From the NCBI GenBank assembly GCA_048213135.1, contig PS015543.1, forward strand, positions 1-36,080: 36,080 nucleotides of DNA, given 5' to 3'. The notes under the pieces are model-generated. The model did not search any database. It was not told the origin of the DNA and was given only the letters and a program-made list of their open reading frames with translations. The translations under genes were made by a program, and so were the position numbers. Origin of the DNA: Reclinomonas americana ATCC 50394 (taxonomy: Eukaryota). Position 1 is the stretch's first letter. Every line of letters starts with the position of its first letter. This document shows, piece by piece, positions 1 to 31,734 of the stretch.

Positions 1-3000
1 TCACGACTCGGGCGAGTTGAATCGAGCCAGTGCAGACCCTGTGACCAGCAGCATCAGTGCAGCGGATGATGATGATGATGACGACGATGACGATGATGAT
101 GACGCGAATCGTGCGGCCACGCCGCCGACCTTGGGTGGGATTCTCGACAGTGGTGAGTGAGCGAGATTTTCGCATCCTTGCATGTGTGTGTCACGCACTG
201 ATTTATCTTTGGCGCGGCGCAGCTGAGGCAGTCGTGGACGAGGACGTGGATGCGGGCTCGTCGCCGGCAGCTGACGATGAGGAGCCTGCGGTGGCTGCTC
301 GGCGCACCGACATTCCGCTCAAGTTCCAGGGTGCCTTGTCGTCGGGGTCGGATTCTGCTGCGCTGCGCGTGCAGTCGTCGCCGCGCCCATCGGCACGCAC
401 CGCCAAGGCGTCGACTCTCGCCACTCGACCCTTCACTCACGACGCCGACATGAAGTTGGAACTGACTGGCCAGCGTGTGGCGGTACCGACTCGCGTTGCA
501 CCAGCAGCACCAGCACCAACTCCTCCGCCTGCGTCATCGGCGTCATCGGCGGCCTCTGACGCAGCCTTTACTCCCTCCACCAAGATCGGCACTCGACCGG
601 TCAGCGCACGTCGTCGACCGTGGGAGAGAGTTGCGAGCGTGTGCCTTGACTGTCATTGGATCGAGCTTGATGTACTCAACTGGGTACGTCTCTCTCTCTC
701 TCTCTGTGTGTGTGTTTGTGTGTCTCTCTCTCTTCTCTCTCTCTCGCTCGTTCTCTCTCTCTCTGTCTCTCCCTCTCTCGCTCGTTCTCTCTCTCTCTCT
801 CTCTGTCTCTCCCTCTCTCGCTCTATCTCTCTCTCTCACTCTCTCTCTCGCTCTCTCTCTGTCTCTCGCTCTCGCTCTCTCTCTCTCTCTGTCTCTCTCT
901 CTCTCTTTCTCTCTCCGCGCTTGCAGGGTGGAGACAGCTCATCGGGCTTGGTACAAATGGACGACACGATGAAACTGGAGACGCTGGACGCGGCCTCGGC
1001 CTCGGCTGTGATTGCTGCTGGCGGTGAGAGAGTGACGCGCACGCAACACAATGTCCCCTTGCTCGACTTCTCCTGACACGCCCTCGCCAGTGGCTGCGTT
1101 GGCCAGTACCGCAACCGTACCGCCGGAGACACTTGCACCGTCACCAGCACCGTCTGCGACACCGGCGCCTACGCCAACGTCTGCTGCGGCTTCCGCTCGC
1201 CCCTCCAGCTCTGGTGGCCGTCGTCTGAAGGGTCTCGATCGTGCCGCTTCTGCCGACAAGTATCAGATGGAGCTGAAGGCTGCGGAGGTTGCGCCCACGC
1301 GCATTCAGCCAGCTGCCGCACCAGCACCTGCGGCCCCTGTGGTTGCTCCCGCCGCACCCGCCAAGGTGTCAATCGTGGAGACAGCAGCCGCTGCCGCCCC
1401 CGCCTCGGAAGATCCGCTCCCCGTGTTGCACGCGGCCGAGAGTCGACAGTCGTCAGCCAGGGATGGTATGTGAGAGACTGGCTTGTCATGACACAGCGCT
1501 GGCCTGTCGCTGATGTTGAATTCGTCACAATAGCCGCATCCATGGCCGCCATTGAATCGTCGCTGCGAGCCTCGATGCAACGCAAGGACGCCTCACCGGT
1601 GTTGTCCGAGTTGACACAAAAGCTGAGGTCGCTCGATCCGAAGAAGCAGGAGTACATGCTCAAGGTGCGTGTCTCGAATCGTCGTCTATGGTTCACACAC
1701 ACANNNNNNNNNNNNNNNNNNNNCCCTCACTCACTCCTCTGCAGATGCTGGAACGCATGGAGCAAGTGGACCTGCGCTCGTCCTCTGAATTCGAGATTCG
1801 TTTCCTCAGCAGCCTCATGGCCGAAACCGCCAAGAAGCGCAAGAGCAAGATGAAGGAGCTGAGTCTGTGTCTCAAGTCCACGTGGGGCAACGACCGCTAC
1901 ATTGGTCTCACCGAGGTGTGTGAGTCCGTGCAGTGGCATTGAGTCGCCTGCTTCCCCTCACAATACTGCAGGTGGAGGTCTACGATCGGTACGACCGCAA
2001 GGTGTATATTGCCGATCAATGGCTACGACTGCAGAATGCGGCACCGGCAGATGGCAATCTGGCGCGCGCCGAGCACACACTCACCAAGCTCGTGAATGGG
2101 AAATTCAGGGTGAGTCCAGCAATGGTGGTCAGTTGATCTGTGTAAATCGCTCACCGATGCACTCACTCGTCAGACCACTTCCGAGCGCAACATGTTTGCG
2201 ACCGACCTGCCGCCACCCGGCGCACCGCCGCTGCAGGTGATCATCTCCTTGCCGACGTCGGTGGAGGTGGCGTACTTGCGGTTGTGGAACTACAACAAGA
2301 CGGCGTCGGTGAGTGAGCAGTGTCGGCGGCAGTGATTCCTTTGCCAGCTGTCTGTTGACGCACGTGTGCACAGGAAATCAACAAGGGTGTGAAGGACATG
2401 GAGATTCTGCTGGACGGCAACTCTGTGTGGACAGGGTGCTTGCAGCGCGGCTGCGGAACGACACACATGGACTACTCCACGGTCGCTGTATTGAAACCGA
2501 CGGCTCGAACGGATGACACCGGCAGCGAATCGGAGCGCGAATCCGACGGAGTGGAGGGCAAGACCGACGAGGAAGACACGCGCCACACACGAACCGATGC
2601 CGACCGTGCTGCGTCAACCGACCTGTCCAATCGGCGGCGACAGGCGTTTGACTTTTTGGATCAGCAGCAAGTGGACAATCTGGCTGCCTCTGGTTGGTGC
2701 ACGCCCAAAGTGTATGTGTGCATTTTTTCCGAGGACTCACCTCCTCGATTCACATCGCAGCGGCGACTGCAACATCGCCCAAGAGCGAACTCGACCAGCG
2801 CTCCTTGCGACTGGCCAAGGCGCACGATCAGCTCATGTCAAACACAGTGGGTGACGCGACGGCGGGCGGTGTGCCGTCGTGGCTGATGGACCTGGCCTCC
2901 CACAGCGAGACAGGCGAGCGGCCAGACAGCGCCGCCCTCGACGACGACGTGATGATTGGCACTGTTGGAGCGGCGGGCCCGTCGTTCCGAGTGGGCGCCG

Positions 3001-6000
3001 ACGATGACGCCGACCCCCTCGGCTTGCAGGGTGACGCTGCGCAGGCACGACCAAGTGCGTCGTTATTCTCACACTCTCTTCTGTCTAGTCCACCTCGTCT
3101 AAATCTCGTTCTTTCCTCTTTCTGCGCAGCGTCGCGCTCCAAGAGGCGGCAACAGGCGAGTGGCTCTGAGGCTCACGGAGTGCCAGCTCCCATCTCCACC
3201 GCCGCCACGAGCACGGCGGCAGTGACCGGTGGCGTAGTAAGGTTACCGGCCGAGCCCGGAAGCCCAGACGATGCACTGTCCAAGTTCAAAAAATCGCAGG
3301 CAGCTCCTGCTGCTGCTGCTACTGCTACTGCCACCGAGACGGCGGAAAAGGCACGCGGAGCTCAAAAACCGGCGGCGCGCAAGCAGGACGCAGAGGCAAA
3401 CGAGACCGACGGCGGGCGCACGCTCGAGTCGCTCAATCGGGAGGCCGAACGGCAGTTGGAGGAGGCCAAACGCGACAAGCAGCAGCGTGTCCTCGAAAAG
3501 GCACACCAAGTCGCAGCTAATGTCGCCTCGGCTGTAGCGGCGTCGGTGCACACTGGCGGCGCATCGGAGAGCATCGTCGAGCCGTCGCCTCGTTGCGTTC
3601 CTTTTGTCGCACGCATCGATGTCGCAGTCACTGATGTGTGTGTGTGTGTGCTTCTTTGTACAGTCACCGAGAGCCGACAAGCAGCGGCAGCGGCAGCTGA
3701 AGCTGTTGGTGAGTGGGAGCATTGGGGAGAGCGAATTTTTATGCACGAGACACACTTCTCACTCTTGTGTGTTGCTGACAGATGGGAATGTGGAGAATGA
3801 CTTGCCGCTCGTGGAGTTGCGTAAGCGGTGTTGCGACACGAGTGGAGCGCGGTGCGCATACAACGTGCTCACTATTCTTCGCAGTCTGTCACCCGTTGTG
3901 ATTCCAGAGGAGCCATCGGGCCGCGTGCTCACCATCAAGATCTACTCCACGTGGGGTGATCCGTACTACGTCGGCATGACTGGCGTGGAGATTTTTGACA
4001 AACTCGGCAATGTTGTGCGCATCAACGATGTCGACAAGCAGGTGAGGGGGAAAGTTTGAGGTGTGCGTTCACGTTTTCTCACGGATCCTCGATCGCCACA
4101 GGTGACGGCCGATCCGTCGAGCATCAACGATCTGCCCGAGTATTCGGACGATCCGCGCACGATCGACAAGCTGTTTGACGGCGTCAACAAGACATGTGAC
4201 GACTTTCACATGTGGTTGGCGCCGTTCACCAAGGGCAAGACACACTCGGTCACCATTGACTTTACACGCAGTATTTCGCTCGGCATGATCCGCTTCTGGG
4301 TGCGTCTGTTCGCTCAGTGTGTGTTTGATGGAGGGAGTGCTGACGTTGGTGGTCACAGAATTACAACAAGAGTCGCATTCACTCGTTCCGTGGTGCTCGG
4401 CACTTGGCGATCGAGCTCGACTCGCTCACTGTATTCCGCGGCGAGATCTCGGCTGCCGACGGCAGCCTGCAGCGAGCCGAGGAGAAGGCAGAAGTTGTGT
4501 GACAGTCAATGGTCTCGTTGTTGTTGGCAAATCGACTGATTCCTGCCACTGTGCAACTGCAGTGCATTTTGTTTACGACGAAAGAGCGGACGATTCAGAC
4601 GATTGAGGCGTACGATTTGCGACGCTACGTGCGCCTGCAGGAGACGATGGAGGAAATTCAGGTCGGTTTTTCTTTTCTGACAGATTATGCTTCGCCGACA
4701 CTCACCACTCGTTGCATGAAAAGACCCTACAACAACAAGAAATCATTCGTGCCAGCGTGCCGAGACCACCAACTGCACAGTCGGAGAGATCACGTGACAT
4801 GCCGGTGCGATAAGCTTGCTGGCTGGCTCACTCCCTCCGCGTTCGTCCACCTCTCATCTGCGCTCCTCCCCTCCACAGCATGCATTCGACGTGGACGTGG
4901 TAACCGGAGGCAGACCACGAACGACTGCACAGGGTCCAACCATGCCGAGCGCTGCGGAGACTGCACGCTTGTTGTCGTCGGCGTATGGGCCTGAGCAGGA
5001 CACCATCATGGGCGCCTCGTCACTACGTCAGTTGGCGAATGACGCCACTGCCGTGTGCAAAGGCTCCTCGGTGCGGCTAGAACTGCTGGAGAGCTGGGGC
5101 GACCGCTATTATGTCGGTCTCACCGGCCTGCAAGTCCTCGTGGATGAAGGTCCGTGTGCCGCTTCTCAAGTGTCTTGTGCAGAGAGTGCGTCGCTCATTT
5201 TCTTGGTGTGTGCAGACTTGCGAGCGGCTCCTGTCACCATGAACGACCTGGAGGCCGCGCCGCGCGACATGAATGCGATTCCGGGGCATCGAGGAGATCC
5301 ACGCACACTGGACAAGTTGCGCGCTTCCGTGCTCCTTTGTCATTCACTCGCACACATCGCGCTCACTACGACGTCATTCATGCAGGCTGCTCGACAACAT
5401 CAACGTCACCGTGGACGACACGCACATGTGGCTGGTGCCGCAGACACTGTTGGAGTCGCGACCGTACATTCGAATCAAGTTGAACAGTCGGCAGTCCATC
5501 TACGGCCTGCGACTGTGGAACTACAATAAGAGCGTGGAGGACTCCTTCCGTGGTGTGAAGCGGATGCGCGTGTATGTGGACGACAAGCTGGTGACGCCAG
5601 AGGGCGGCGTGATTGTCAGAAAAGGTGAGTGTGGGCACGGTACTGTCGCCATGAGCTGAATACTGAATCCACCCCGTGCAGCACCGGGTCTGGATCTGTT
5701 TGACTTCTCGCAAGTGGTGCTCCTCAGTGCCAACGGCGACATCAAGGTACGCGTCACTCTCATGCTACTTTTTCTCGGTCGCCAAGAGTATTCATTCTCC
5801 GTGTGTTTGCATAGGGCGTGCTTCCGTACTCGCTGCTGCAACCCAGTGTGCGTGCGCACTACGTCGATCAGAACGCCAAGTACTCGCTGGAGCGTGGTGG
5901 TGGTCGCGAGCCGTGTCACAACTACGTCACGCCACTCAATCCTGTTGGCTGTTGCGTGCCGGTTGCCTTTCCTTTCCCCCTCCCGTCCATAGCTCACTGT

Positions 6001-6818
6001 GCGTCGCGCAGACGTGTTCAAATTTGTGCTGCGCACGACGTGGGGCGATCCGCACTACGTCGGGCTGAACGGCATCGAGTTGTTCGACTTGCGCGGCGAG
6101 CCAATTCCGCTCACCTACGCCAACATCATGGCCTTCCCCCGCAGCGTTTGCGACACGCCAGGCAATGCCGACGATGTGCGCACGGTGGACAAGCTCATCG
6201 ACGGCGTCAATAACACGTGGTCCGACGAGCACATGTGGCTGGCGCCGTACACCGTGGGCGAGGTACGTGTGGAGGAAGATGATTACCACTGCTGTTCTTG
6301 AGTGTTGCTCATCTCACTGCGCGCACGCGTAGGAGAACCTCCTGTTTGTGGTCTTCAACGAGCCGACGCCGGTGACCGCCATCAAAATGTGGAACTACGC
6401 CAAGACGCCGGAGCGTGGCGTGCAGGATTTTGAGTTGTACGTCGACGACCTGCTGGTGTACCAGGGAGCGCTGGTGCGATCGCCCGTGCAAGAGGGGCGC
6501 GCACCTCCACCCGACATGGCGCAGACGGTGTTCCTCACGAGGTGTCCCACGGTGACGGAGATTGTGGGCGGTCGCTCGGCGGCGGTCAAGGTGGGCACCA
6601 CGGCGCCGAAGAGCGCCATGATCCTCGGTGCCGGCTCCCGCGGTGCGGCTGGCGGCAGGCAGCAACAAGAGGCGGCGGTCGTGGAACAGGAAGTGCTGTT
6701 CTTCAATCAGCGCAAGTTGGAGCACGGCAAGCTCGTCGATCAGGCGCCAGTGCCAACAAGAACCGATTCGCTGGAGCGGCCGAGAACATCAGCCGGATCG
6801 CAGAAAACTGAGCTGTAA
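1..6818 (+). CDS. KATNIP: Katanin-interacting ciliary/basal-body protein KIAA0556 (DUF4457 repeats), 5'-partial, about 24 introns
   Basis: Spliced exons give four modules starting with (S/T)TWG/ESWG..Y.G(L/M)(T/N): [15 protein letters not shown] (~1875), [19 protein letters not shown] (~3945), [17 protein letters not shown] (~5085), [19 protein letters not shown] (~6035). They are followed by R-T-x-D-K-L-x-D and H-M-W-L-x-P (last three modules) and by WNY(N/A)K..GV/GA motifs typical of this family. Stop TAA at 6816-6818. Confidence 0.9.
689..914. repeat. Imperfect (CT)n/(GT)n microsatellite inside a KATNIP intron
   Basis: Directly visible dinucleotide run; it expands this intron well beyond the usual ~65 nt. 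Confidence 0.95.
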
Positions 6819-6984
6819 ATGAGAAAGTACGATACTATAGCTGAAGTTTGCACAATCAGGGATTCCTCTTGCTTGATTGGTCAATTGCCGTGATGGGCGA
6901 CCATGACACGCGCTTGTCGTTGTGCCGATGTCACCGACACCCATCATCACCGTTTGAGCAGCGAGAGCGCAGTGTCGGAGGGAG

Positions 6985-9900
6985 ATGGCGGCCGCCGCCA
7001 GTGAGGAAACGCGCGTGACCTCGTTTGTCCGCGTCGATCAAGTGTACGAGCACTTGACAGAGGTAGCCCTCTCACACACATAAAGAGAGAGAGCAAGTCA
7101 CTTACTTTCTCCTTCACACACACACAGATCTTTGACGCGCTCTTCCAAGAACGAGTTGCGTTGGACGCTCACAATGAGTGTGTCTCTCCCTCACTTTCCG
7201 CCTCACACACTCTCCTTCTTTTGCCTTGCAGGTCACTCTGCAAAAGTATGAAGAGGCCGAAGTCATCGAACGATTGTCTGAGTCGGTGCAGGCGCACGTG
7301 CAGGTGGCTATTGATGACAAGGTGCTCTTACCCTCCAAGTGCTCTCTGTCACCTCTCAGCTCGCTCATTGATTGGTGTTGTGAATAAGCTCGAGCATTAC
7401 ACGGCCGAGTTTCTCGTCGGAAGCAATCGGTTCGGCGTGGAGGAGGTTCTGCCAATCCCCGATGTGTTCCGCCAGTCACTGGACGCGCAGCGCAAAGAGA
7501 ACGCGGTCTGCCTCTCTCTCTGAAACACTGTCTCTCTCACTTTGTCGCTCACGCCTCTGTCTCCAGGAGCTGAAGAAGAAGATGTCGACGCAGGACTCGG
7601 TCATTGATCGCATGCACAATCGCATTGAGAAAGTCACCGATGCGGTGCGTCCCCTGAGACCCTGTATATATATGTGTGTGTGTTGGATGCTCATCACGGT
7701 GGCAAACAGATTGACGAGGTGCGCAAGACGCTGTACAAGGAGAACTGTTTCTTTCGTGAGCGGCTGGGATACGGGCCAGACTCGACGGCCGGTGGCGATG
7801 TGTTTACAATGTTGCACTTGGCGTTTGCGGAGTTTGGCGACGATGGGCCCGACGAGCAGGATCTCGATGCACACTTTCGTGCGCAAGTGCAGGATCTGCT
7901 GTTCAAGAAGACGCAGGAGGTGGAGAGCGAGAAGGCCAGTTTGATTCGGTATCAGAGTGAGCAGGCCAAGAAGCGCCAGCAGGCCTTCACCTCCGCACTC
8001 GAGGAGAAGGCGGCTCGTGTGCTGGAGTTGGAGAGCCTGCTCGATCGCATGCTGTCGGAGTCGTACGGCGGGCAGGCGGAGACGGCCGACCTCGAGATCC
8101 AGACCGAGGGTGTTCCATGGGGGTACGTGGCTCTGAGTTTGGCCACCGCCTCTCCCTGGCCCGACTGACTGACATGTTCGCAGCGAGGAGGTCGAGGTGC
8201 AAACAGACCCGTGGGAACCGGAGCCGGTGATTGTGGAGAAGTTGATTGTGGTGGAGCGACGTGTCGATGTGGGAGCAGCTGCGGCGGCGCAGCTGGGCAC
8301 CGCGAGTGCGGACGACTCGCCGGCCACCGACATGGTGCCGCTCGACGCCTTTGTCTCTGCACAGGAACAGCTGGCCGAGGCCAAGGAGCAGGTGAACAAG
8401 GTGACGCAGGAGCTGGAGCTCGTGCGTCGTGACATGCGCGACGCGGCTGAGCGTAGTCGACGACAAATCGATAAGCTCAAGGCGGACTCCAAGCGCGCCG
8501 GCAAGCCTCCGTCCTCTGCTCCGGCCCGCAAGTCTCACACCGACAGTTCCGTGGAGGCTGAGAGCGACGATGCGGAGGCCGACGATGAACCGGAGACGGC
8601 GTCAGAGCCGGAGCAGCCGCGCTTCACCACGCCCAAGGAGGCCATCACGTACGAACAGAAGAAGTTTGCGGAGATGGAGAGCACTCTGCGCAACGATATT
8701 GCGACGGTGCGCAGCGACAAGGATCGCGAGATTGCACAGCTGCGGGAGCAGCTGCGCGCCAGTGAGCAAGGTTTGAGCAGTGTTGATGTCCTTCTGTGTT
8801 TTCTTTCTTCTCCTCACCAATTTCATGTGCAGCGGCGCAAGCGGTGAACACCGAGCTCAACGCCACGCAGTCGGCGGCCACCAAACAGCAACAAGAGGTG
8901 GCGAAGCTGCAGGCGGACCTCGCCAATGCACGACAGCAGGCTGCTGATTTGGTTTCGGCCGCCGCCCGTCGCGCGGCCATGACCAAGTCCGCCGGCTCCA
9001 CTGCCTCACTCGCGCGCACCTCTGCCTCCGCCGGGCATGACAGCCACGGGAGTGCCGACATGCCAGAGGACGACGATGACGATGTGCCGGTTCCCCTCTC
9101 GGCACCCGCGCCCATTGATTTGGATCTGGACGAGGCCACTGCTCCGGTGGCGCATGATGACGAGCCCGACATTATCGCTTCGCCCATGACACCGGTGAGG
9201 TGGAGGGCGGAGAGAAGAATGGGGAAAAGAGCTATCGCCGCTTACCTTTCTGCTCGCAGAACACACCCATGGCCTTCCGGGCAGCTTCGCCAACTGCAGC
9301 CCTGGCGCAGCACATCAAGCCAGTGAGTTTGACCATGAAGGAACTGCAACGCACAATGCTGGTGCACGCTTGCCGCACAGCTGCCGCCGTGTCGCTGCAG
9401 CGACGGGTGGCTAAATTGCATGGTGCCAACGCACCATCCACTGGCACGGTGTCGTTGGTGTGCGTCGCGGTGGAAAACGCTTCCGATTTGGTTTGTCTGT
9501 CGTGGTACTCTCTCACGCAGCTGCGCTCGTCGATGTGTGACTGACAACGACTGCCCACAGTGGAATGAGTGCCCGGGAGCCATGTTCCAGGCGACGCTGA
9601 TGTCGGGCGAGATTATGGTTCACCAATTGGGTCAGGTGCGTAAGGAGGCAGAGGGACGTGCTGCTCCCACTCTCAGTGCTCACTATTCCTGCATCGCAGT
9701 GCAATGGATTCATGGCCAGAAGTGATGCCGGCCGGCCGGTTATGGTGTTCCGCACGCTGGTCGACGCCATGAACTTTTGTCTGCGAACTCAGGTGTGTTC
9801 TCGCGCGCACAATATCGCCGTCTTGTGCATTCTTACTGATCACCTTGGCAGCTGGCGCATGTGGCCGCGGAATGGCCCGAGCCCATATTACATTCGAGCT

Positions 9901-12900
9901 TGTGCCCGCTCGTGTCGTCCGCCTCGGCCTCTTCCAAGTTGCGTTGCTCCGTGTGATGCACGCCGATAGTCTTGTCACACTCACTCTCCTCGTGCAGATC
10001 GGCGTTCCGTGGCTTGCGGTTGCGCATGGCGGTCCACACCGACACCGCAGTGATTGCGCCGGACGTGTCGTCCGGCTTGGTGGTTGTCGGCGGTGACATT
10101 CAGCCATTCTGCACGCAGCTTACCGGTTTGCGAGGATTCCCCTTTTGCACTTGAGTGTTTGGTTCTCACTCCCGGATCGTCTGGCAGATGTGGCATTCGG
10201 CGGTCAGATTGTGCTCAGCAGCACAGTGGCGAGTGCCGTGCGCAACGGCAGTGGCACGACCGGGCTTGATTTCTCACTCACCGTCAAGCCGCACAGCCGG
10301 CAGCTGCAGGCACGCTTGCCTTGCCATCCACGCGCTGCAGCACTCAGTCACTCACTCACTCACTCACTTGGTGTGTACCTCTTCGCGCAGCTTCTGAGTG
10401 CCATGGAGTCACCCGATGCGATGCTGCTGGTGCCCGGCGAGTTGGCACACCGCAAGTTTGAACCTGTATCACCGGTGCCGGTCGCACTACGCGATATGCA
10501 AAATCCGATTCAGGAGCTGTACTGCATCCAGCGAGCGTGGGAGAATGCGCAACACGATCTGAGGTGTGCAATTACTTATGGTCGTCTCGTTGATCAGCGA
10601 CTGGTTCTGATTCATCTGTCCAGGAAACTCATTGCTGCCGCGCGGAGCGAGCCTGAGGTCCTGCGCGAACGTCAGCTGCACGACATGGCGGTGCTGCTCG
10701 AGAGGCTGCTGAGTACGGTGGCGGATGTGGGGATGCAGGGAAGGTTTGTGAGCGCTCAACTGATGTCGCGATGCATTGCTGGCACACTCACCCCTCTGCG
10801 CAGCGTCGTGGAGCATGGAGGCACAGTACCGCCTGGCTCTGAATCACAACTCCAGGTGCAACCACAACAACAACTTCTGCAGCAGCCGCGATCTGGTCGA
10901 GGACCGGGTGGAAATATGGTGGAGGTTGGCACTCACCTGCCTCTGTATTGTTCAATTATTCGTGGCGTGTATTTCTCACCCGCACCATCGCACAGACTGC
11001 CTCGTCGCCGATTCACGTCATGCTGAGTGGTCGCATACCGGCAACAGATCCCTACGGCATTCCGTATTCTTCGTCGACCGATGATTTGCTGGATCACTCG
11101 GTGCGTTCGTGTGGGGCGAGTTGCACACGCACACACATGTTATCGCTAACTGGTGATTCGTTCTGTGGGTGCGGCAGTCGGTGAATTCCATGCCGCAGTA
11201 CGATGCACGAGATGTTGCGTGCGATGAAAAGTGTCTGTTCCGCCTTGTTGCCAGCTTGCTTCCTCACCATGTTGCACACAACAGGCTGGCTCCTCTCCCA
11301 TGCCGCGTGCCGATCAGCGAGATGTTGCGATTTCAGTCCGCGCGTGCTTCGTTGTGTGCTGTTGCAGCTCACTTTCAATCCATGCAGGCCATGCTCTCAC
11401 CGATGAGTTTCGACAATGGTGATGCCGGCAGCTTGAGTGACGGATCGTACTTGCCGCCATCTCCCATGGCGATGCGACGGCGAAGCCTGGAGACAGCGTC
11501 GCCACACGCGCTCATTGAGGGCCAGCCGGCCGATGATGATCAGTCGGCTGCTTTCGAGAGTGGCAGCGAGCAGGTCGACAGTGTGGCAGACGGCAGTCAA
11601 GAACACGAGGCTGGACCCTCGCGCTGGCGCAATGCACCCGGCATGCTGCGCACGACGGGAGTTTCGTGCCATTATTTGTTCTCAGTATTATATTTCTACC
11701 CTTTTGCAGTTGCTCACGGCATGTTTGCATGTGTAGGATGACTGGGCCGATTTCTCAAGTGGCCCTCCAAGGTTTGTCCTTGCGCTCTCCAGTGCTGTCG
11801 AATGAACTCACTGACTGACCTCGTCACAGTGAGCCACTGTTCTCCTATCCGGTACCGAACTCGGCGGTGCGGGATTCGGCGCGCTCAGTACCCATGTCGC
11901 ACCAGTCGTCGTCTCCGATTGCCGCCGTGCAGCCTTCGTCGGGACGCCGTGGCATCGACACTGTGTCGGCTGTGTCGCTGGAGGACCATGATGTGCCGGC
12001 GGAGGAGGATGCGCACCTGGCGCACAACAAGAGACCGCTGAGTTCACCGGGTCACATTATCGCGCTGCTGCGTGCCACGAACGCCGCCGAGCAGCAACAG
12101 CAAATGCTGCTGCAGCAAAACCAAGTGTCGTCCTCCGCTCGCGGCTCTGGTCGGCGCCAAAAGGACACGTCGAAGATCGACGAGGAGCAAGACACGGTGC
12201 AGTCGCCGTCGTCACAGCACCAGCAGCAACTGCAACAACGTGCTTCCGCCGGTCGCTACCACCGCGTACAGCGCAGCGTATCACCGCTCTCACAAGCACG
12301 ACAGCTGTCGCAAGTCGACACGTTTGGGCTGGCGGCTACCACCTCCACGGGCGAGGTGGTGGTGCCGCCGCACACGTGGGACTACGTACGGACGGCGCTG
12401 ATGTACATGGTGCAAGATTACGAGAAGATCGCGGAGAGAGCAGGCGAACCGGAGGAAAAGTGGAGGCGCAAACTGGACGCGGCGCGGCAGGCGCTGACGC
12501 TCGTCATGAATCCACTTCCAGGGTACGTCGAATTGGTGGCGAGGGGGGCAAGTGTTTGCTTGTCTGGTCACTGACGTGCATTGTTTGTGTGTACGTGTAC
12601 GTGTACACAGGGCGAACCCAATCTCCCTTCCCAGCGACAGCAAGATCACACACGCTGCCGATCTTCTCGGTCCACCGCACTGGTGGGACGTGGCAAAACG
12701 AGCCACAACACCACCGGCCGCCGTCGACGAGTTGCTGCCGTCGGCCGACTCGCAGCAGAGTGAGGCGCTGCAGAGATTGGCGGAAGAGCGGCGCAAACTG
12801 CACGAGCGACGCGTGCAGCTGACGTTGCGTTGTGTTGACGGAAGAGGTGGTTGCTGTGTTCATTTTTTTTTGCTGATTTCGTGTTGTCGTCTCAGGGAGG

Positions 12901-18330: not shown

Positions 18331-20589
18331 TCCATCAAGCAGCAGTGGCGGCGTTGACAGTTTGTCAGCGCGACGCACTGTGACACTGGCCGGGTCGCGC
18401 ATTGTGTTGCTCTCACCGCCCTCGTCATTGTCATCGTCGTCGTCGCGTCCATCGTCGGCAAGAAGCTCTGTCATGTCGCCTCCTGCGCCTCCTCCACCAC
18501 CGCTGGAGCGGCCGCTGTCGGGCAGGCGCGTCATGGACTCGATGCTGCTCAGCACGGGCGCGGACGATGTCAGTGAGAGGCTGCGTGCGTGGCGGCAGAG
18601 TGGAGGCTTTGGGAAGGGCAGTGTCACGCCGAAGCAGCGTGCAGCCAAGGTGGCGGCGGCGGCGGCAGCTGCGGCGGCCGAGGAGCACGATGAGGAGACA
18701 CCGGGGGCGTCGCCGCCACTGACTGAGCGGCTGCTCATGTATGAGCCGCCAGAGTCGCCGCCCACGTCCATGCCACCCTCGGCAGTGCGTACCGCTCTTT
18801 CTCACTCTTTCTCTCGTCATACCCACATTGTTCCGCTGCAGCGCACGATGAACAGCTTTGGGAGTGTGATGATGCAGACGGGCGATAGCAGCAGTGGCAT
18901 GCGGAAGCAGCGGTTCAAGCGGGCCGCGTTGTCGCCGCGTCCGCGATTGGCGTTTGTGCCGCCACTGGTGCGATTGCATGTCGGTGGCGCGGCGCAGATT
19001 ACCGAGGTGGAGCATGAGGTGTTGGTGGCGCAGAGTGGGAGTGGTCGCTCGACAGCGCGACGTGCCAGCTTTGCCGACGTGTCGGGAAGGCGGCCCGAGT
19101 CACCCGGCCGGTCCATCTCGCCGACGCTGGCGGAGCCTCGCAGGGCGAGTCTGTCGTCGGCCATGATGATGGAGTCGCGCCGCGGCAGTCTCTCTGCGTT
19201 GGTCATGGCGGCGGCTGTGCGGCGGTCTTCACCGTCGCCGACATCGGGTGGTGAAACCTCGTCTCGCACCTCGTCACCGGGTACTGCCGGTGGCAGTGGT
19301 CGCAGCCTGCGCTCGTCATCCATGTCGCCACGGCAACGCGTTCTCACACCACTGCAAAGACCAGCAGTTGCGCCGCCCCCCCTCCTTCACCCGCCGATGT
19401 TGCTTCTGTCGCATGTTTTATTGAATCCGTTGTGCAGAGCACGGCAGTCAAGCCCGGCTTCAACTCGACGGAGCGCAAGTTCTACCAGCGGAGTGTTGCG
19501 TCTTGTCACCCGAGTCTCCGGAGATGAGGGAGGGAGGAGGGTAAGAAGTCTCATGTGCTTGTGTGGCAGCGTGTGTACACTCGACCGCAAGCGCCGCCTG
19601 GCTGGGGAGGCGAAGAAGGTGCGCGAGGGCGTCCGCAATCGGCACCGCAGGGTCCACGGCCGGTTTCACCCGGTCCGCCACCTTTAGTTTTGTTCCTGGG
19701 AATGCGCTCCGCGTTTGCTTTATATTTTTCCTCACTGCTCTCTTTGCATCGCCAGGCCAGAGACGCATCTCCGCGACCCTCGTCTGCGGTTCGTGATCTT
19801 TGTGCGAAGCGTGTTGTTTGTCGATGACTCACCACCGTGCGCAGCGTCCGGGGTCGGCACGATACCAGCCGCGACCGATGGTTTGCCACTCCACACGTTG
19901 TGTTGTTTTCACACCTCTCCTGACTCCATGTCAATCAGAGTGCAAGCAGTCAGGGTGGCAACCGCCACGTGCATCCCGGCCACGAAGAGGAGTCGACGCC
20001 GCGGTCGTACAAGGAGTCACCGAGACGACCAGGCTTCGCCTCCACCGGCAGCATGGCGCATCAGCGACGAGATGTGCACCCGACTGGCGACTTGCTCGGC
20101 TACATTAGCTGGAGCGTGGCAGACACGCTGCCGGGCACACCGGTGCGATTCCAACATCTCTCTCTCTCTCCTTTTCTCCTTTTCCGTATGTTTGCCTGGG
20201 GTGGCATTGCCGCGTGCTGAATGCGCTTGTATGTGCACAGCGATCGCCTGCGAACCGGCCTCTCTCTGCACGTGGCGCGCCACCGAGAAAAGTGCCTGTT
20301 GTTGCGTCCCTCTGTGATTTTTCTCGTCCTGTGTACGTGTGTTACCTCGCAACCCCCACTCATGCACCCGAGCAGAAGTCGCTGCGAATCAACATCCCGC
20401 ATGTTGCGTCGACATGGCGTGCGGCGATGGTGCCTCCTGTGCTTTTCTCTCATGGCCGCTTGTGTTCCCATCTCACAGTCATCAGCGGAGGGTCAACAGG
20501 TGCCGCGTGGACGCGGTCTACTACTCCTGGCTCCCGGACACTCGCCACTCGAGGGAGGTGGCGTGCTGGTGGAGAGCCCGGCCACCTGA
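18331..20589 (+). CDS. Hypothetical Ser/Arg/Pro-rich disordered protein with repeated RPxSA motifs, 5'-partial
   Basis: Frame-consistent chain of GT-AG exons starting at acceptor 18330 and ending ESPAT* (TGA at 20587-20589). Motifs RPSSA, RPQSA, RPSSA, RPGSA, RPLSA. No folded domain recognised. Confidence 0.55.
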
Positions 20590-20625: not shown

Positions 20626-20633
20626 CTACGCAC

Positions 20634-20676
<43 letters not shown>

Positions 20677-22763
20677 CCACGCGTTCCACTGCTCGATGGG
20701 CAGGTTGAAGGAGGACGCCAGTCGATGTCCACCGCCTCCGTACGACTTGGAGATGACTGAAGCGAATGTGCGTGAGTGACTCTTTCGAGGTCAAGGCACA
20801 CGGCGTCGCACACCTTCAGTGTTTTCCTCGCCAATGCCTCGCAGCGAAATCTTGATCATGTTCCTGTTGCGACACAGGAGTTGTGAGGCATCGTTCAAAA
20901 TACTGGAGCGTGGATACGGAGCGCAACGGAGGGAGTGACGGATCCACTGTTTGCACGACAGCAAGTGAGAACAAGGTGCAACGCGGTGTGAAGAAACAGG
21001 TGTTACACGTACGTACCGTACGCCACAACACCGATGGCACGCAAACCCATGGCTGTTGCATCGCAATGTCAGACCTCCATGCAATGCCACTTTACGAGAG
21101 ATGGAAAATCACCCACCAGCACTGCGTGAGGCAAGTTGGTTGCCGAGATCCGAACGCAGTCCGGATTGCTCGAATGGCACCTGAGTGTGGATGGTGAGGT
21201 GAGAATGCGATAGGCGGCGGAGCGCACCAACACTCGATTCACTCGCCTCCACAGCCAAGCAGCGGCCAACACTGGACGGTCCAGCACCAAGCGAGATCGT
21301 CGCAGCAGTGCCCACAATGCCGTCAATCTCCAGCTGACGACCGGTCAACTTGCTGCGGCCGGCGGCAACCAGCGCCGAGGGATCAATGCCCTGCAGCGTC
21401 TCAAAAATGCCCGGGTTCACTCGCGCGTCAAACTCCAGACCGAGTGCTGCCGCGGGAGTGAGTGGACGCACCCGTTCACGCAGCAATGAACAACATTACC
21501 AAACCTGCAAAGCCGCTTCCGAAAGCCTGCACAGGGACAAGAAAGCTAACTCAGCAAAGTAAACAAGAAGAAATCCACGGGAAAGAAGTCACCTTCCACT
21601 CCTTGTCTGCATGGCAGAGGCACAAGTCAGCGACAAACAACTCAATGCAGATCACACTCAAATATCACACGCACCACCTCCATCACGCCACAGATCACCG
21701 TCCTGCCACGCGTATCACGGGTGAGTTGTCCGCACTCTTCCACCTCGAAGATCATCATGCACGCACCTCCACCAACAAAAACGCTCGATGCAGACGCGCA
21801 GCAGCCTCCGTGCTGCCGGCCAACAACTCGGCCGACGTCTGCTGACCGCGCACATCGCTCCACTCCTCCCTCAGTCGCGCCGCAAAATAATCCCACGAGA
21901 TCGTGGCCCCACTGCGCTTCATGTCCAGATGCAACTCCACATTCGTCGGCAGCTGTCCACCCTGCGACGACACATGTCAGCAGACAACTCTCGCGACCCA
22001 CCAGAGCGGGGTACACACACACAGACACGGAACATCGGCCAGCTCCTCCGCCTCATCCAGTGCCGTCTTGTGATGATCGAGAACGACAATCTGCACGCGC
22101 GTGCGTGTGTGAGACACGTCGCTGCGAGGGCAGCAGACTCAAACGAGCGAAAACAAACCGTGCTCTTTGGCAACGCAGCCGCCAGCTCACACACAAAGCC
22201 ACGAGGTCCCATGTAGTCGCACAGGTACACTGCACACACACACACACACACCAACAGTGCGTCAATGACACACACACAGTGAATGCATTCATGACGCATG
22301 CAAAATCACCTCGCTTGGTGTGCTCCGGATGCACCGGCAACTCATTCACCTGCAAGCGACGCGTCACCTGATGCGGAACAAAGGCCACCGACTCACCACT
22401 GCGCACATACGCACAGATGAGACACACACAACGAGCGAGTGCACAACGAGACACACGCGCACGTTCGATGATGATACAGCCAGGCACCAAATGCTGCAAA
22501 GATACCATCAACGCACTGCACATGCCAGTGAGCACACACATGGGCGAGCACGCACACAGTGATTGACACACACGCAACGGGATAATGATAGAGCACCACA
22601 GTGCTGCTGAACGATTGCTGCTCAGCTGCGAGCGCGGAAGAGTCAGAAACACTCACTCACAAAGAGAGAGAGAGAGACACACACACACACCATGCATCGC
22701 CACTGCCACCGACGATGTCATGTACAGACACAGAGGGGCCGCCCTGGCCAAGTAGCGCATCAT
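20626..22763 (-). CDS. DHH-family phosphoesterase with C-terminal DHHA1 domain (NrnB-like / plant-type uncharacterised DHHA1 protein), possible mitochondrial presequence
   Basis: Spliced motifs VLYHYPCVDGIFAA, VYLCDYMGPRGFV, IVVLDHHKTA (DHH), LDMKRSGATISWDYF, VEDGDLWR, LRSDLGNQLA, IKISLRG, SKSYGGGGHRLASSF (DHHA1 GGGH). Stop TAG at 20628-20626. Start MMRYLARAAPL at 22763 (alternative ATG near 22721). Confidence 0.88.
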
Positions 22764-22828: not shown

Positions 22829-24110
22829 ATGAGAGCGTTGGTGGCACTCACCTGTGGCGCCAGTCTGCTGATGCTGACGACACAGCATCGCCAGCGTTCA
22901 CTGACGATGCATGCTGCCACGCAAGAGGCACAACTCGTGTCGCGACAAGACGCGGCTCGTGTGCTGCAGTCGTGCGTGCGACCTGTGTGCACGCTGCTGC
23001 CCGCTGACAACGAGCGTCTGCCGTTCGTTCTTGAGTACATTTGTGGTGTGCGTCGTCCGCACTTGATTGTGGTGCCGGTGGACCACGACAGCATGCGTTG
23101 CGTCTCTTCGTCGCGATTGTCAAGGTGGGTGCAAGACTGAGCGTCGCTCGCTCGCAGCCACCGATCTGTGTGAGAGCGAGTGGTCGCTGCAGGTGCGTCT
23201 CTGGGAGACGGTGCAGCGGACGGTGCAGGCGGTGCGACAGCGTGGAGCTCGAGGCACGGTCAAGGTGTCGTTCCATCAGGGGTCGTGGCGAACGTGTGAC
23301 TGGATGCACGTGCATGTGGTGCTGCGGACGAGCGAGTACGTCTCGCTGCTGCAGCAAGATAGCAAGGAAAACGACAGAAAGGTGGATGTGGCGTTCTGGC
23401 AACAGTTTGACGAGCGACTCCTTGCTCGCAGTCTCTCGTACCGCGAGGCCGATAGTGCAGAGGCGGCACAGGTGCAGTGCACGGGCTCATGCCCGCCTGT
23501 TTCTGGCGAGCGCTTCCGTCTCTTCGACGACGCGGACGTGCAACGTGAGTTGAAGCGGCTGCAGCAGCCGGAGCGCGACAGCAACAACAACAACAACACC
23601 CACCCACGCATCCACCCGTCTGCTCTACCCCAGGTCTCCCCTCGTGCACTCGCTGTGCATGTTCGTGTGTTGCGTGAGCTGACTCGACGCATGCGCAGTT
23701 GCAGATGGCGGCGAACTCGGCCGTGGAGGTGACACTCGACGACACACTGGCTCGAGTGCACTTTACCATTCCTCACGACGACAACAACAACAACGACGAC
23801 GACGTGGATTTTGTCAGCCAATGCGGCCGCTTGTACCTGTGCATGATGCTGTTCTATGGCGCCAAGAGACTCCGCGATGCGCACTTGGTGTTGGTGTTTG
23901 ACGGTGAGTTCATTCTCTCCTACGCCCCGTCACTTGCTCGATGACAAGCACTGAGCCGCACACCCTTTTTGCTGATCAGATGCGTCGACGCCGAAATGCA
24001 CGCACGGCTATGTGCGGCTTGCGCCTGCCGAGTACGTCTGTGTCCATCCGCATCGCGACAATTGGCTTGAGTCGTACCGACACGCCGCGGATCCCACCAT
24101 TGACACGTGA
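22829..24110 (+). CDS. Hypothetical protein with a HIT-like (histidine triad) nucleotide-hydrolase signature; 3 introns
   Basis: Spliced ORF from ATG 22829 to TGA 24108-24110. RPHLIVVPVDH resembles the HIT H-phi-phi-phi-phi-P-x-x-H motif, and FHQGSWRTCDWMHVHVV resembles the triad with the first His replaced by Trp. Confidence 0.55.
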
Positions 24111-24151: not shown

Positions 24152-25514
24152 TCATGAGGCCTCTGGCTGTTCACGATGCCACGGCCACTCGGTATTGAAG
24201 GTGTCGAGCAGCAGGTCGCGCATGGCGCTGTCCTTGCGCACGGCTAGCAGATCCACGACGCACCACGAGAGGCCGCCCAGTCTCGTGTGCGAGTCCTGAC
24301 ACATCTCATAGTCGCTGTCCCACCACACCCCTGAAACGGGCAGCAGAAGACCGTCGCCGAGTGCATACAGCTCGTAGCCCATGACGTGCACGGCCATGGC
24401 AAAATCGCGCAGCGTTGGACTCGGCACGTCGCCAATGGCGCGTGGTGCCGGGTACTTGCGCATGCTTGCCGCTCGATACACGCCGTTCCACATGAGCGAG
24501 TACTCGAACGAGGCCAGCTCCACCAGCCCGGCCCGCAGCAAGCCCTCCATGCCGGCCAACACATGCGACTCCCAACCCTCGACGTCGACCTTGACGTAGA
24601 GAATGCGCCGACCGGCCAGCAAACGCGCTCGCTCGTCGGTGGCAAACAGCGAATCCAGTGTGGTGACAAACACACGGTCCACCTTCTCCCCGTGCACACC
24701 GGCGGCGACCTCGCGCTCCGACGGCGGTCGCAGAGAGAACAAGTTGCCGGCCCCCACTTCCTTGGAGGCCAGCGAATAGAGCGGCAACTGTCCGACCGTG
24801 TCACCCAGGGCCACCTTGTGCAACTGGAAGGTCGTGCTGGTGCTGTCGGCGTCGGTGATGTTGAAGCGACGCTGCAGCTCCTGGCGCAGCATGCGATGCG
24901 CACGACTGGCCGGCTCAAAGGCCACCACGTGGCACTCACCGCGCATCAGCTCATACGCGATCAGCGCATCCGACGCGTCCATGTCGTCGTTCCAGTGCGC
25001 CGCCCCCACATCCACGATAATCGGCCACGGCTGCGCCAGCGCTGCGTGTGCCTTGCTGTCGCGCTCTCGCAACTCCGACAGCGCTCGTCCATACACCCAA
25101 CGCGCCAGTCGTTTCAGCGGACCAGGCGATCCTCCGGCCGAGTGATGAAACGCGCGACCGTGCTTCCGATACCAGTCGGTGAGGCGCGAGCGCATGCGCA
25201 GCGTGTGCGTCAGTTGCACCGTGGACATGGATGGGCCGGTTGCAGACTGGAAGGCGAGTGTGTGTGAGAGAGGGAGAAAAGGAAGAGGGGAGAGAGAGAG
25301 ACGCAACGCTGCACAGGCGCTCGCCGATGCGCTCCAACGCAGAGAGAGTGGATGAGTCGCGACGACGCGTGGCAGTTGTCGGCATTGTGGAGGTGGTGGT
25401 GCTCGTGGACTCCATCGCTGAATGGAGAGCAGTGAAGAGCAGCAAGCTGCCGAGCACACAGCCGAGTGTGAGGCCGGCCAGGAAGGTCAGGGCCAGTGCC
25501 CATGATGGGCGCAT
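24152..25514 (-). CDS. FkbM-family (Methyltransf_21) SAM-dependent methyltransferase with N-terminal signal anchor; 1 intron (25307-25247)
   Basis: IIVDVGAA (motif I), VVAFEP, HKVALGD, TTLDSLF, ILYVKVDVEGWESHVLAGM, FEY; hydrophobic N-terminus WALALTFLAGLTLGCVLGSLLLF. Confidence 0.88.
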
Positions 25515-28892: not shown

Positions 28893-31734
28893 ATGTTCAC
28901 CCGCGAGGAACTCGAGGTGAGTCGTCTCGGTGCTCCGACTCTGCGCACGACGTCTTGTCCCACTTCTCCCTTCGACGCAGGCGTTCAAGCGCCCGGAGCT
29001 GCAGAAGCTCGCCAAGGAGCACGGCATTCGCGCCAACTCCAAGTCATCGGTGATCATCGATGAGCTGCTTGCCGCGCTCGGCGAACAGTTGGGTTGCCTT
29101 CACGAACATGTGCCGTTCCGACCAATGTTGCTGAGATCCCCTCTCGCAGAGCATCGCCAGTGGAGCAGGTGGAGATGGAGGAGGTGGAGGAGACACCCGC
29201 GCAGGCGGACGCTGGTGGCGAGGAATTCGCCGAGGCACTGCCGTGAGTCGCACACACACACTTTATGAAGATCTCACCACTCACGGAATCGTTGACAGTG
29301 AGGCGGCGCTGGCGATCTCGCCGGCAACCGAGGACGAAGTGTCGGGGTGCGTTGCTTGAACATCGATTGTGTCTTGCGTGGACGCAAGCACTGACCGTGT
29401 GACGAGCAGGCAAGCCGTGGCGATGGATGCCGATGTGTTCCTGGGCAAGAGCACCACCACGGACGGCTCCAACAGCAACGACTCGACTCTGATCGACGAG
29501 AAGGAGGGCGGCATCTCGCCCACCGCGTCAGCCGGCAGCAGCGCGCAGGATGTTGCGTGCTCGCTGCGTGTTCCCCGTCGATACCTCTCGTGACAAGTAA
29601 CAAACCCTTTCGTAGAGCGTCATGTTCCCGATGGAGGCGCCGCCACTCACCACCATGTTGGACCTGAAGAGCCCGCACCTCAACAAGTTGCCATCGCGCG
29701 TCTTCAACCCCACTGGTGAGTGACTGGGTGAGTGGCAGGTGAGGCGATGCCGCCACGAGAGCTTATCGTACTCTGTTCGTAGCCTCGACCCGCAAGATGG
29801 CCCTGTGCGACGACTCGCTCACAGCCGACCTGGCCGCGCTGGACGACGTCTCCGTGTTTGACCCGGAGGAGAGCATGGTGCGCCCGGTGTCGCAAGTGTC
29901 TGTGCCCAAGGAGAAGGTCTGCGCATGAAGAAGTTGAGTCTCGTTCGTGCACACGCCAACTGTGTTGTTTTGTGGGCAGGTGGACGTCATTCGCAAGCGC
30001 ATGTCGCAGGGAACTGCCAATCGCCGCCAGTCGCTGCTGCGTCGGCTGAGCACGGCGCCGCTGCCGGCCATGGAGGTCGACGAAGTTGCGCCCATGTGCT
30101 TGGCCGCCTTTGTTTTTCCTCCGCCACTCATCGCCTACGCAGGCCCCTGCTCCGTCACCTGACGTTGTCGATCAGGCGGCCGTGTTGGAGGCCGAATTCG
30201 CCAACGTCTCCACAGCATGGGAGGCTGTCAAGCGACGGTGCGTGTACCCTCTTACTCGGCAGTGGAAATTCCTACTTGGTGCTCATATTTTCTCCCTCGT
30301 GTCGTCGCAGCTCTTCTGTGGGCGTCGGGCGCCGCCAGTCGCTGTCGGCAGACGCGGCCGTTGCTGCTGCTGCTGCGCTCGCCCCTGTGCAGGAGACTGC
30401 CAACGTGGTGCCGGCCGCCGATGTAGCTCTGTTGGCCGCCGTGCAGGCCGAAATGCAGGAGCGGCTGCAGAAGAAGAAGGAGATCGAGGCGAACGAGGAG
30501 AATGAGGCCTCGGATGATGAGTCCGACAGTGAGCCTGTGTCGCGCAAGGAGCAGATCAAGAACAAGCGCGCCAAGTCAGTGCAGACGCAGCGCAAGTTGC
30601 GTGGAACCGCGTCTGCCCGCCACCTACGTGCTCGTGTCTTACAGCGACAGTGTGCAGGCAAGTGACCGAGCAGCGCAAGACCGAGATCAAGAAGGCCATT
30701 GCCAATCCGAAGATCGCCAAGCGCATGGCACCGACATCCTCGACACCGGCTGCCACTGGCGGTGCTGCGGCGTCGATCAAGGACAAGTTTGACCGCCAGC
30801 ACCAGGTTATTATGTCGTCCACGCTCTATCGACGTCAAATTCTCGCTCTGCTGACACTCGTTGATGAGCAGAAACTGTTTGCGAAATCCGAGTCCATTGT
30901 CGACACGTACCAGCGCATGCAGCAGTCGCGCACGCCAAGCAAGCCCATCGTCTCCAAGACCCCAAGCAAGACACCGAGTCAGAGCAGCACCGCGCCGCCG
31001 ACCAAGACTGCCATTGGCAACAAGACGCCGGCAACCGCCAAGGCCACCACGGGTGCGATAGCCACTCGCACACCAAAGAACCTTGCTGCCGTCGGCTCGC
31101 GTCTCTTTGCAGAGACCGCCTCGACTCGCGCCAAGGTCACATCCACGACGACGACGACGACCACGACGACCACGACGACGACCAACACCACCACCACACC
31201 GGCGCGTCCGGCGACTGGTGCGGCCCCGCGAACGGCGTCGGAACTGACGCTGTTCAAGTCCAAGTTGCGCTGCAATCCCCATTCTTGTTGTACAATCAGT
31301 GTGTTTCACTCACTCTTTTCGGTTGTTGCAACTGCGCAGAACGGCCCGTCCGCGTGTGAAGTCGATTGGTGCACCGAGACCGACGACTGCTACTGGCATT
31401 CGCCCGCCCCTGCAGACCTCCAAGGCGGCCAACAGCGGTGCGCCCGTCTCACTGATCCCAGTTCCGTCGTCGGCACTGAAGGAGAACCGCACGGCAAACT
31501 CGGATCGTTGCGCGATTCTTGGCCCCGAGCACAAACCACCACCAGTTTTCTCACCGCATGCATGCAGTGAAATCGACCGGCGCCGCCAAGATCCCCATCA
31601 AGAAGACGGCCGTGCGATCGTCCACCAGCGACGCCGCTCGCACCGAGAAGCGCGCCAATGCGCTGAAGCAGCAGACCGACCGTCGCAAAGCCGCCCTGAG
31701 CAATCGCCGAGGCGGTGCCGAAGTCGAGGCCTAA
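28893..31734 (+). CDS. NuSAP-like (nucleolar and spindle-associated) microtubule-binding protein with N-terminal SAP-like domain; 13 introns
   Basis: N-terminus MFTREELEAFKRPELQKLAKEHGIRANSKSSVIIDELL resembles the NUSAP1 SAP-like start (L..LAK..G.RAN). KFDRQHQKLFAKSESIVD resembles the NUSAP1 F...H...F...ESID motif. Basic Thr/Pro-rich tail; TAA at 31732-31734. Confidence 0.65.

Follow-up and report, generated by a model that had tools for sequence, protein, structure and literature searches.

A GTTGCG class of 5' splice sites, never preceded by G, in a 36-kb stretch of Reclinomonas americana DNA

Introduction

Few features of eukaryotic gene expression are as conserved as the 5' splice-site consensus and the 5' end of the U1 small nuclear RNA (snRNA). 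A locus in which many introns appear to start with a different word raises the question of how its intron starts are recognised. The window considered here is such a locus: a stretch of 36,080 bases from Reclinomonas americana ATCC 50394 (assembly GCA_048213135.1, contig PS015543.1, positions 1 to 36,080 of the forward strand), which is eukaryotic, very intron-dense, 60% G+C and interrupted by six N runs. An earlier note, made from the letters alone, had described introns that begin with GTTGCG after a base other than G, interspersed among ordinary donors such as G/GTGCGT (the slash marks the splice border), and had attributed them either to a routine one-base shift in pairing with U1 or to a variant U1 or U6 snRNA or an altered spliceosome. 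The present analysis shows H/GTTGCGY, in which H is any base except G and Y a pyrimidine, to be a true 5' splice site that opens about 20-25% of the short GT-AG introns of the window. These introns are interspersed with ordinary G/GTRNGT introns in the same genes, and the way in which the organism recognises its intron starts is probably unusual.

A second donor class in the window

All 27 GTTGCG positions that had been listed as donors (21 on the plus and 6 on the minus strand) carry the letters attributed to them, as do three variants, GTTGTG at 4494, GTTGGG at 29088 and GTTTCG at 11661, and none of these sites, variants included, is preceded by G. The hexamer occurs 50 times on the two strands together, compared to 34.4 expected from a second-order Markov model. 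As raw enrichment this excess is only modest, and the signal resides in strand and context. Within the gene regions there are 36 sense copies versus 12 antisense copies (binomial p=7e-4).

The use of these copies was assessed with an exon-chain dynamic programme, all gene models in this work being computational. The programme scores codon log-odds, accepts any GT...AG pair, rewards a CT[CG]A[CT] branch motif before YAG and favours lengths of 50-80 nt through a prior. At third codon positions G+C amounts to 77% and A to only 8%, a skew which makes coding frames easy to score. In its blind form the model was given no donor information except GT, its intron signals being taken from homology-anchored introns, and it was applied to gene regions that had each been assigned to a strand, then retrained on the exons it had itself predicted; unrestricted self-training on both strands was dropped in favour of these regions because it drifted into over-prediction. 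The blind model proposes 113 introns, and the commonest donor hexamer among them is GTTGCG. It uses 16 of the 36 sense copies, as against 113 of 2541 GT dinucleotides overall (4.4%; binomial p=7e-13), while the ordinary hexamers are used in 6 of 15 (GTACGT), 9 of 38 (GTGCGT) and 6 of 25 (GTGAGT) occurrences. Of the previously listed sites it recovers 16 of the 27 with GTTGCG and all three variants.

An informed model, supplied with a hexamer donor table learnt from the blind run, yields 114 introns, whose donors include 23 GTTGCG, 10 GTGAGT, 10 GTGCGT and 6 GTACGT. It retains 22 of the 27 listed sites and the three variants, and adds one that had not been listed, at 20927(-). The five listed sites that it leaves unused (9938, 19495, 20301, 20403 and 22578) can be forced at a cost of 2.9-5.9 nats, and in all five a branch motif and YAG lie 60-76 nt downstream. 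The estimate of 'about 25 of roughly 110' introns is accordingly reproduced as 23-28 of ~114-118. Every one of the 23 GTTGCG model introns is bounded by GT...AG and keeps the frame open.

The same contrast appears when the coding model is set aside and only a branch motif with YAG at 50-85 nt downstream is sought. This configuration follows 23 of 35 sense GTTGCG copies (66%), 25 of 72 copies of the three ordinary hexamers (35%) and 368 of 2,340 other sense GT dinucleotides (16%), the difference between the first and the last being pronounced (Fisher p=6.5e-11). Antisense GTTGCG copies, at 2 of 12 (17%), resemble the background.

Eight sense copies are not donors, four of them lying in predicted exons and four inside introns. 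The exonic copies at 1288 and 10019 are preceded by G, and those at 25073 and 34523 have A at +7. The last of these, 34523..34528 (+), cac/GTTGCGAGT, serves as a control for an exonic non-donor, being situated inside a continuous, Pfam-matched WD40 open reading frame (ORF) with no branch motif and YAG downstream.

Junctions fixed by homology

The firmest junctions are those in the exons of KATNIP (DUF4457, Pfam), located at ~3,500-6,800 on the plus strand. The closest KATNIP relatives are 40-49% identical when one KATNIP exon is used as the query. A metagenome scan provided 25 further loci with KATNIP relatives, to which the best identity of the window's KATNIP is 67% over 18 residues and 60% over 79. 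In one of these loci (L007, 63% G+C) the KATNIP region is intronless over 1,500 bases and aligns without gaps across the window junctions at 4494, 5316 and 5951. Two others (L010 and L013, 56-60% identical) carry introns at the same position and in the same phase as 5316 and 5951. Taken together, the intronless relative and the conserved intron positions fix 5316 and 5951 independently of the GTTGCG motif.

The best-verified member of the class is the intron 5316..5385 (+), of 70 nt, which reads caa/GTTGCGCGC...CTCAC...CAG/g and is attested by the gapless L007 match, by the intron shared with L010 and by the blind model. Its donor is the sole GT that keeps the frame, the other options being GC donors which add residues. 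The intron 5951..6011 (+), of 61 nt, reads gct/GTTGCGTGC...CTCAC...CAG/ac and is placed both by homology and by the intron shared with L010. Its junction, PLNPVG/YVFKFVL, matches an oomycete KATNIP (P0004) as well as L007 without gaps, and with the competing GT at +6 the intron would shrink to 37 nt and the protein would gain 8 residues. The earlier note had held the PVG/YVF junction to be fixed by the conserved protein, and the gapless alignment and the conserved intron position bear this out. The third junction belongs to a variant donor, in the intron 4494..4562 (+), 69 nt, gaa/GTTGTGTGA, which the blind model also proposes; here AEEKAE/CILFTT aligns gapless with AEEKAEVLLFT of L007, which alone fixes it.

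The introns at 5316 and 5951 are old, since their positions are common to a distant relative. In L010 the donor at the first position is GACAA/GTATGAC...CAG/G and at the second, within the same split Tyr codon, GGCT/GTACGT...CAG/AC. Because the relative has conventional donors at both positions, substitution in place gave rise to the GTTGCG state; the two introns show that one donor class can be replaced by the other while the junction stays unmoved. Three intron positions in all (5316, 5951 and 6263 of the window) are common in position and phase to L010 (at 614-770 and 1380-1500) and L013. Across the 25 loci, among which there is no close relative, the gene strand holds 8 GTTGCG copies, of which 0 are followed by a branch motif and YAG.

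Anatomy of the two donor classes

Flanking bases were counted over 28 sites, namely the 23 of the informed model and the 5 probable ones. At -1 the class has A in 11, C in 8, T in 9 and G in none, A being the commonest base, whereas 27 of 36 ordinary GTRNG donors have G there (p=1e-10). At +7 it has T in 18, C in 8, A in 2 and G in 0, and the ordinary donors show T in 26, C in 5, A in 3 and G in 2 at +6.

In length and at their 3' ends the introns of the two classes resemble each other. Those of the class are mostly short (55-80 nt), with a CTSAY branch motif and a CAG end, and their median length is 69 nt compared to 67 nt in ordinary introns. C stands at acceptor position -3 in 22 of 23 class introns and 32 of 36 ordinary ones, and the median distance from branch to acceptor is 18 nt and 16 nt, respectively. 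A CTSAY-type branch motif was found in 17 of the 23, and its CTCAC form in 14 of 23 versus 34 of 91 for all other introns, an excess which is not significant (p=0.058). Intron phases are mixed. By predicted borders, frame, branch motif and acceptor, the GTTGCG introns are U2-type GT-AG introns, apparently served by the same 3' machinery as the ordinary ones.

Some features of the remaining donors may be recorded here. The model introns at 2693, 8771, 9491, 11772, 21231(-) and 22158(-) have T at +3 yet keep G at -1 and G/T at +5/+6 (G/GTTTGT, G/GTTGGT), and positions +3 and +4 of ordinary donors seem unusually free (GTNNGT). GTAAG, a perfect match to standard U1, occurs in 4 copies on the sense strands of the gene regions and is never a model donor.

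Register and pairing with U1

In terms of its letters, GTTGCGT is G/GTGCGT with the second letter changed. The proposal that the consensus is displaced by one base holds for part of it: +3 to +7 of the class (TGCGY) correspond to +2 to +6 of ordinary G/GTGCGT, with +7 mirroring +6, yet the consensus as a whole is not shifted. Ordinary donors are GTGAG (16), GTGCG (12) and GTACG (8), whereas the class comprises GTTGCG (23) with no GTTGAG and no GTTACG (Fisher p=6e-8); the latter two words are used in 0 of 1 and 0 of 2 occurrences, respectively. On the exon side, the predominance of A at -1 (11 of 28) is what a plain shift would give, and G at -1 (0 of 28), set against G at -2 of ordinary donors (8 of 36; p=0.0075), is rarer than a plain shift predicts.

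Pairing was computed with ViennaRNA duplexfold, which permits any register, shift or bulge. The mean duplex energy to standard U1 is -0.67 kcal/mol for the class, -2.45 for background GT sites and -6.98 for ordinary donors. A shifted register employed routinely on ordinary U1, as had been suggested, is not supported by these values, the class pairing worse with standard U1 than random GT sites do; since the pairing is weak in any register, an ordinary-U1 shift fails to explain the recognition. The strong pairing of the ordinary donors in turn argues that a standard-like U1 exists, and GTTGCG is not what such a U1 selects. Among 2,620 U1 variants with up to three substitutions, a two-substitution variant, AUACGUAACUG, reaches -9.0 kcal/mol on the class and a three-substitution variant, AUACGCAACUG, -11.0 kcal/mol, and both pair in the shifted frame. 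The other part of the earlier proposal, a variant U1 or U6 or an altered spliceosome, fits better. Rfam models detected no snRNA gene in the 36 kb at gathering score, and only two weak, irrelevant matches at E<=0.5.

The individual sites

Outside the homology anchors, two introns are chosen in every model pass: 12824..12895 (+, 72 nt, gac/GTTGCGTTG), the first blind pass included, and 23097..23157 (+, 61 nt, tgc/GTTGCGTCT). Blind and informed models agree on a larger set. On the plus strand these are 7155..7231 (77 nt, cga/GTTGCGTTG), 11214..11284 (71 nt, gat/GTTGCGTGC), 11324..11387 (64 nt, gat/GTTGCGATT; one of only two members with A at +7), 19367..19437 (71 nt, gca/GTTGCGCCG), 29552..29615 (64 nt, gat/GTTGCGTGC), 30085..30142 (58 nt, gaa/GTTGCGCCC), 30596..30657 (62 nt, caa/GTTGCGTGG), 31264..31339 (76 nt, caa/GTTGCGCTG) and 31507..31567 (61 nt, atc/GTTGCGCGA). 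On the minus strand they are 14182..14257 (76 nt, atc/GTTGCGCGT), 17507..17577 (71 nt, gca/GTTGCGCCC) and 25247..25307 (61 nt, agc/GTTGCGTCT), the last in the gene of an FkbM-type methyltransferase (PF05050). Both models also choose a possible, uncertain intron at 630..926 (+, 297 nt, aga/GTTGCGAGC), which spans a (CT)n tract; its length is atypical, no branch motif and YAG lie at 50-85 nt, and +7 is A.

The variants GTTGTGT, GTTGGGT and GTTTCGT are rare, and the rule ascribed to them, that they too follow a base other than G, holds for all three, each of which is used by both models. Apart from the KATNIP site, they open 29088..29149 (+, 62 nt, aca/GTTGGGTTG) and 11661..11736 (+, 76 nt, gga/GTTTCGTGC).

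A further group is proposed by the informed model and has a branch motif with YAG at exactly the intron's length. It consists of 3592..3663 (+, 72 nt, ctc/GTTGCGTTC), 3816..3884 (+, 69 nt, gga/GTTGCGTAA; a second GTTGCG lies inside, at 3830), 13866..13924 (+, 59 nt, tga/GTTGCGTCT), 17232..17290 (-, 59 nt, att/GTTGCGTGG), 17603..17671 (-, 69 nt, cct/GTTGCGTTT) and the previously unlisted 20864..20927 (-, 64 nt, tcc/GTTGCGCTC). Next to the fourth of these, at 17282(-), stands a tandem GTTGCG copy that follows a G and goes unused. Doubled copies a few bases apart occur at 17282-17290(-), 3816-3830(+) and 9938-9947(+), reading GTTGCGTGGTTGCG, GTTGCGTAAGCGGTGTTGCG and GTTGCGTTGC, respectively, and could act as tandem alternative donors.

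The five sites that the informed model passes over are probable introns. The first, 9938..9997 (+, 60 nt, caa/GTTGCGTTG), is obtained for 3.0 nats, with a branch motif and YAG at 60 nt, and forcing it brings in neighbours with cag/GTGCGT and cag/GTGTGT donors. At 19495..19569 (+, 75 nt, agt/GTTGCGTCT; 5.5 nats; branch motif and YAG at 75 nt) the model prefers the GT at +6 (19500). The intron 20301..20375 (+, 75 nt, gtt/GTTGCGTCC; 5.9 nats; branch motif and YAG at 75 nt) lies within a 233-nt model intron, and 20403..20485 (+, 83 nt, cat/GTTGCGTCG; 3.7 nats) has its branch motif and YAG at 76 nt. The fifth, 22516..22578 (-, 63 nt), reads ccc/GTTGCGTGT...CTCAC...CAG and joins YHYP to CVDGIFAAFGAW; the coding evidence for it is weak because the frame stays open through the intron. 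The donor at 22578 had been placed in a 'DHH gene'. The intron is probable at a forcing cost of 2.9 nats, and the label of the gene, at 20,626-22,721(-), is tentative, Pfam having returned no match on 18 single-exon ORFs.

Genes and repeats of the window

The Pfam scans covered part of the window's ORFs, in the form of stop-free single ORFs. Besides KATNIP they identified the methyltransferase (ORF 24,155-25,486 on the minus strand), an aldose-1-epimerase gene at the right end of the window on the plus strand, and the WD40 ORF at 33,686-34,978 (+), with 431 unbroken codons. A query with an epimerase exon gave no matches at E<=1e-40.

In the model the KATNIP-like region 1542-13950 (+) forms one very large gene, or possibly two, with ~47 short introns in all; 2-6818 and 6985-13950 (+) may belong to a single gene. 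Outside the DUF4457 repeats much of the region is low-complexity or unconserved. The WD40 ORF lacks introns although its surroundings are intron-dense, and WD40 proteins of bacterial or metagenomic origin predominate among its best matches, at 27-46% identity. The ORF may have been acquired recently, or may simply encode a repeat protein that evolves fast. The commonest hexamers of the window derive from long (GA)n/(CT)n and (GT)n/(CA)n microsatellites (e.g. 650-900, 14900-15100, 15620-15700 and 18100-18280). Several of these adjoin N runs, which suggests that the N runs are assembly gaps at repeats.

Discussion

The leading explanation for the GTTGCG class, to which a probability of roughly one half may be assigned, is a U1-type guide RNA whose 5' end is adapted to GUUGCG. 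Compared with G/GTGCGT, the TGCG(Y) core is set one base further into the intron, and recognition would probably take place in a +1-shifted frame, the intron's first G occupying the place of the exonic G at -1. Such a guide could be a second variant beside standard U1, or a changed U1, and two substitutions from the standard U1 motif would suffice. After hand-over U6 would likewise pair one base deeper, with cleavage staying at GU. Selection would act against G at -1, a base that allows the ordinary register to compete. The restriction to the GCG core (23 versus 0) is easier to reconcile with a dedicated complementary guide than with a degenerate shift.

A more specific version can be offered tentatively, at odds well short of even: two parallel U1-type guides may operate in the major spliceosome, a standard one for G/GTRNGT and a second one complementary to GUUGCGY, the latter serving a fifth or more of the introns, with G at -1 as an anti-determinant. 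The 5' end of the second guide might be, for example, AUACG(U/C)AAC..., two or three substitutions from standard. If true, this two-guide split would be a new kind of division in intron recognition, distinct from that between U1 and U11.

Several considerations weigh against the adapted guide and the frequencies attached to it. The guide RNA itself is pure inference, the window being without an snRNA gene, and the U1 5' end belongs to the best-conserved RNA sequences known, so that a changed or second functional one would be exceptional. The proposed model does not itself entail that G at -1 is avoided. The duplex energies were calculated with the conserved U1 5'-end motif, in which plain U stands for pseudouridine, and took no account of proteins, whose stabilising effect on weak sites is established. 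Homology fixes only 3 junctions, and the other 20-25 come from an ad hoc gene model. As many as 55 of the 114 model introns fall outside GTTGCG and GTRNG (27 'GTT-other' and 28 'other') and have less certain borders, which renders the percentages approximate. Finally, the analysis covers one 36-kb window, which may not represent the genome.

A single ordinary U1 might instead serve both classes, in a +1-shifted or +3-bulged register, if U1C, LUC7-type or other proteins stabilised the duplex and U6 and U5 fixed the cleavage at GU. The near-universal conservation of the U1 5' end speaks for this, as does the correspondence of TGCG(Y) with +2 to +6 of G/GTGCGT and of +7 with +6. Both kinds of register are proven for human sites (PMC4856993). 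Yet the class pairs with this U1 less well than random GT sites (-0.67 versus -2.45 kcal/mol), GTTGAGT or GTTAAGT would pair better and nonetheless GTTGAG (0 of 1) and GTTACG (0 of 2) go unused, and a bulged register would favour the very G at -1 that is missing from all 28 sites, which leaves this account unlikely. Recognition could also be independent of U1, which would be dispensable for the class if UUGCG(Y) were read by a sequence-specific protein, or by U6, U5 or Prp8 in an altered spliceosome. The hexamer is rigid, lacks an exon consensus and is barely complementary to U1, as would be expected of a protein site or of the target of a non-U1 guide. The likeness between +3 to +7 of the class and +2 to +6 of ordinary donors would then be a coincidence, however, and no spliceosomal gene was seen in the window by the Pfam scans of part of its ORFs; such a mechanism appears distinctly improbable.

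Two further explanations are very doubtful. A diverged minor (U12-like) spliceosome, with a 5' consensus that drifted to GTTGCG and with introns that multiplied, would account for the rigidity of the 5' motif and its lack of G at -1, both in the style of U12-type sites, and CTCAC is somewhat commoner in the class (the p=0.058 given above). Against it, RTATCCTT has 0 matches in the window, GTTGCG is unlike the U12-type consensus, and the introns of the class do not differ from ordinary ones in branch motif, branch distance, acceptor or length. It is equally hard to credit that the class is an annotation artefact, the true donors lying nearby (the GT at +6 in GTTGC/GT, or GC sites) and GTTGCG being a common intron-proximal word or an introner relic. 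In its favour, the gene models are all computational, a second GT at +6 is present in 18 of the 28 sites, and the model did choose it at 19500. The intron at 5316, however, has no GT at +6 and no other frame-keeping donors except GC sites that add residues, the one at 5951 would have to be shrunk and its protein lengthened, and both match the intronless relative and the conserved intron positions. An introner family was considered separately and rejected: information is <0.3 bits at +8 to +18, nothing being conserved past +7, and the introns at 5316 and 5951 are old, common to relatives of 56-60% identity. Internal complements (CGCAAC) of the 5' end near the 3' end, or inverted repeats, show no excess (4 of 23 versus 15 of 85 other introns). 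With neither conservation past +7 nor an excess of complements, the class is not a family of related mobile introns.

The adapted U1-type guide remains the favoured reading, and its implications reach beyond the window. One fifth of the introns have U at +3 and C at +5, never follow G and should hardly pair with standard U1, which makes the organism a natural experiment on the separation of the cleavage site from the U1 register; functional U1 variants or U1-independent recognition become directly testable. In practical terms, gene finders that have learnt ordinary donors would get a large part of the organism's genes wrong. In the full-text literature searched, where coverage is thin for subscription journals and a mention in a genome paper is possible, GTTGCG or GUUGCG as a splice signal led only to unrelated papers.

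The nearest known counterparts are human 5' splice sites that are reportedly recognised by +1-shifted U1 pairing (Roca and Krainer 2009). They share with the class the GT-AG borders, U at +3, a U1 block one base deeper, the lack of G at -1 and cleavage at GU. They are rare, however, and have a full consensus block (UAAGU) with good pairing to standard U1, whereas the class makes up 20-25% of introns, has the block UGCG(Y) with negligible standard-U1 pairing and excludes G at -1. Validated noncanonical registers amount to ~1.5% of 201,541 human 5' splice sites, and bulge +2/+3 sites number in the tens (PMC4856993). The latter, as described there, likewise consist of GU, an extra U and then a block matching ordinary +3 to +6, yet they keep G at -1 paired and should favour it, unlike the class with its 0 of 28.

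U12-type introns offer a likeness of another kind, since they too form a second class, mixed with ordinary introns in the same genes, whose 5' motif is rigid and whose exon side shows no consensus. The GTTGCG class differs from them in its unrelated motif, in the absence of RTATCCTT and of a distinct branch site (that of U12-type introns being TCCTTAAC, situated close to the acceptor), and in a frequency far above that of U12-type introns in most organisms. The donors G/GTGCGT and G/GTGAGT, for their part, are the ordinary donors of GC-rich genomes, e.g. those of green algae. The ordinary class of the window is of the same type (36 GTRNG donors, 27 with G at -1), and the new class has the letters GCGT as well, yet it departs from that type in its T at +3, C at +5 and G at +6, and in its exclusion of G at -1.

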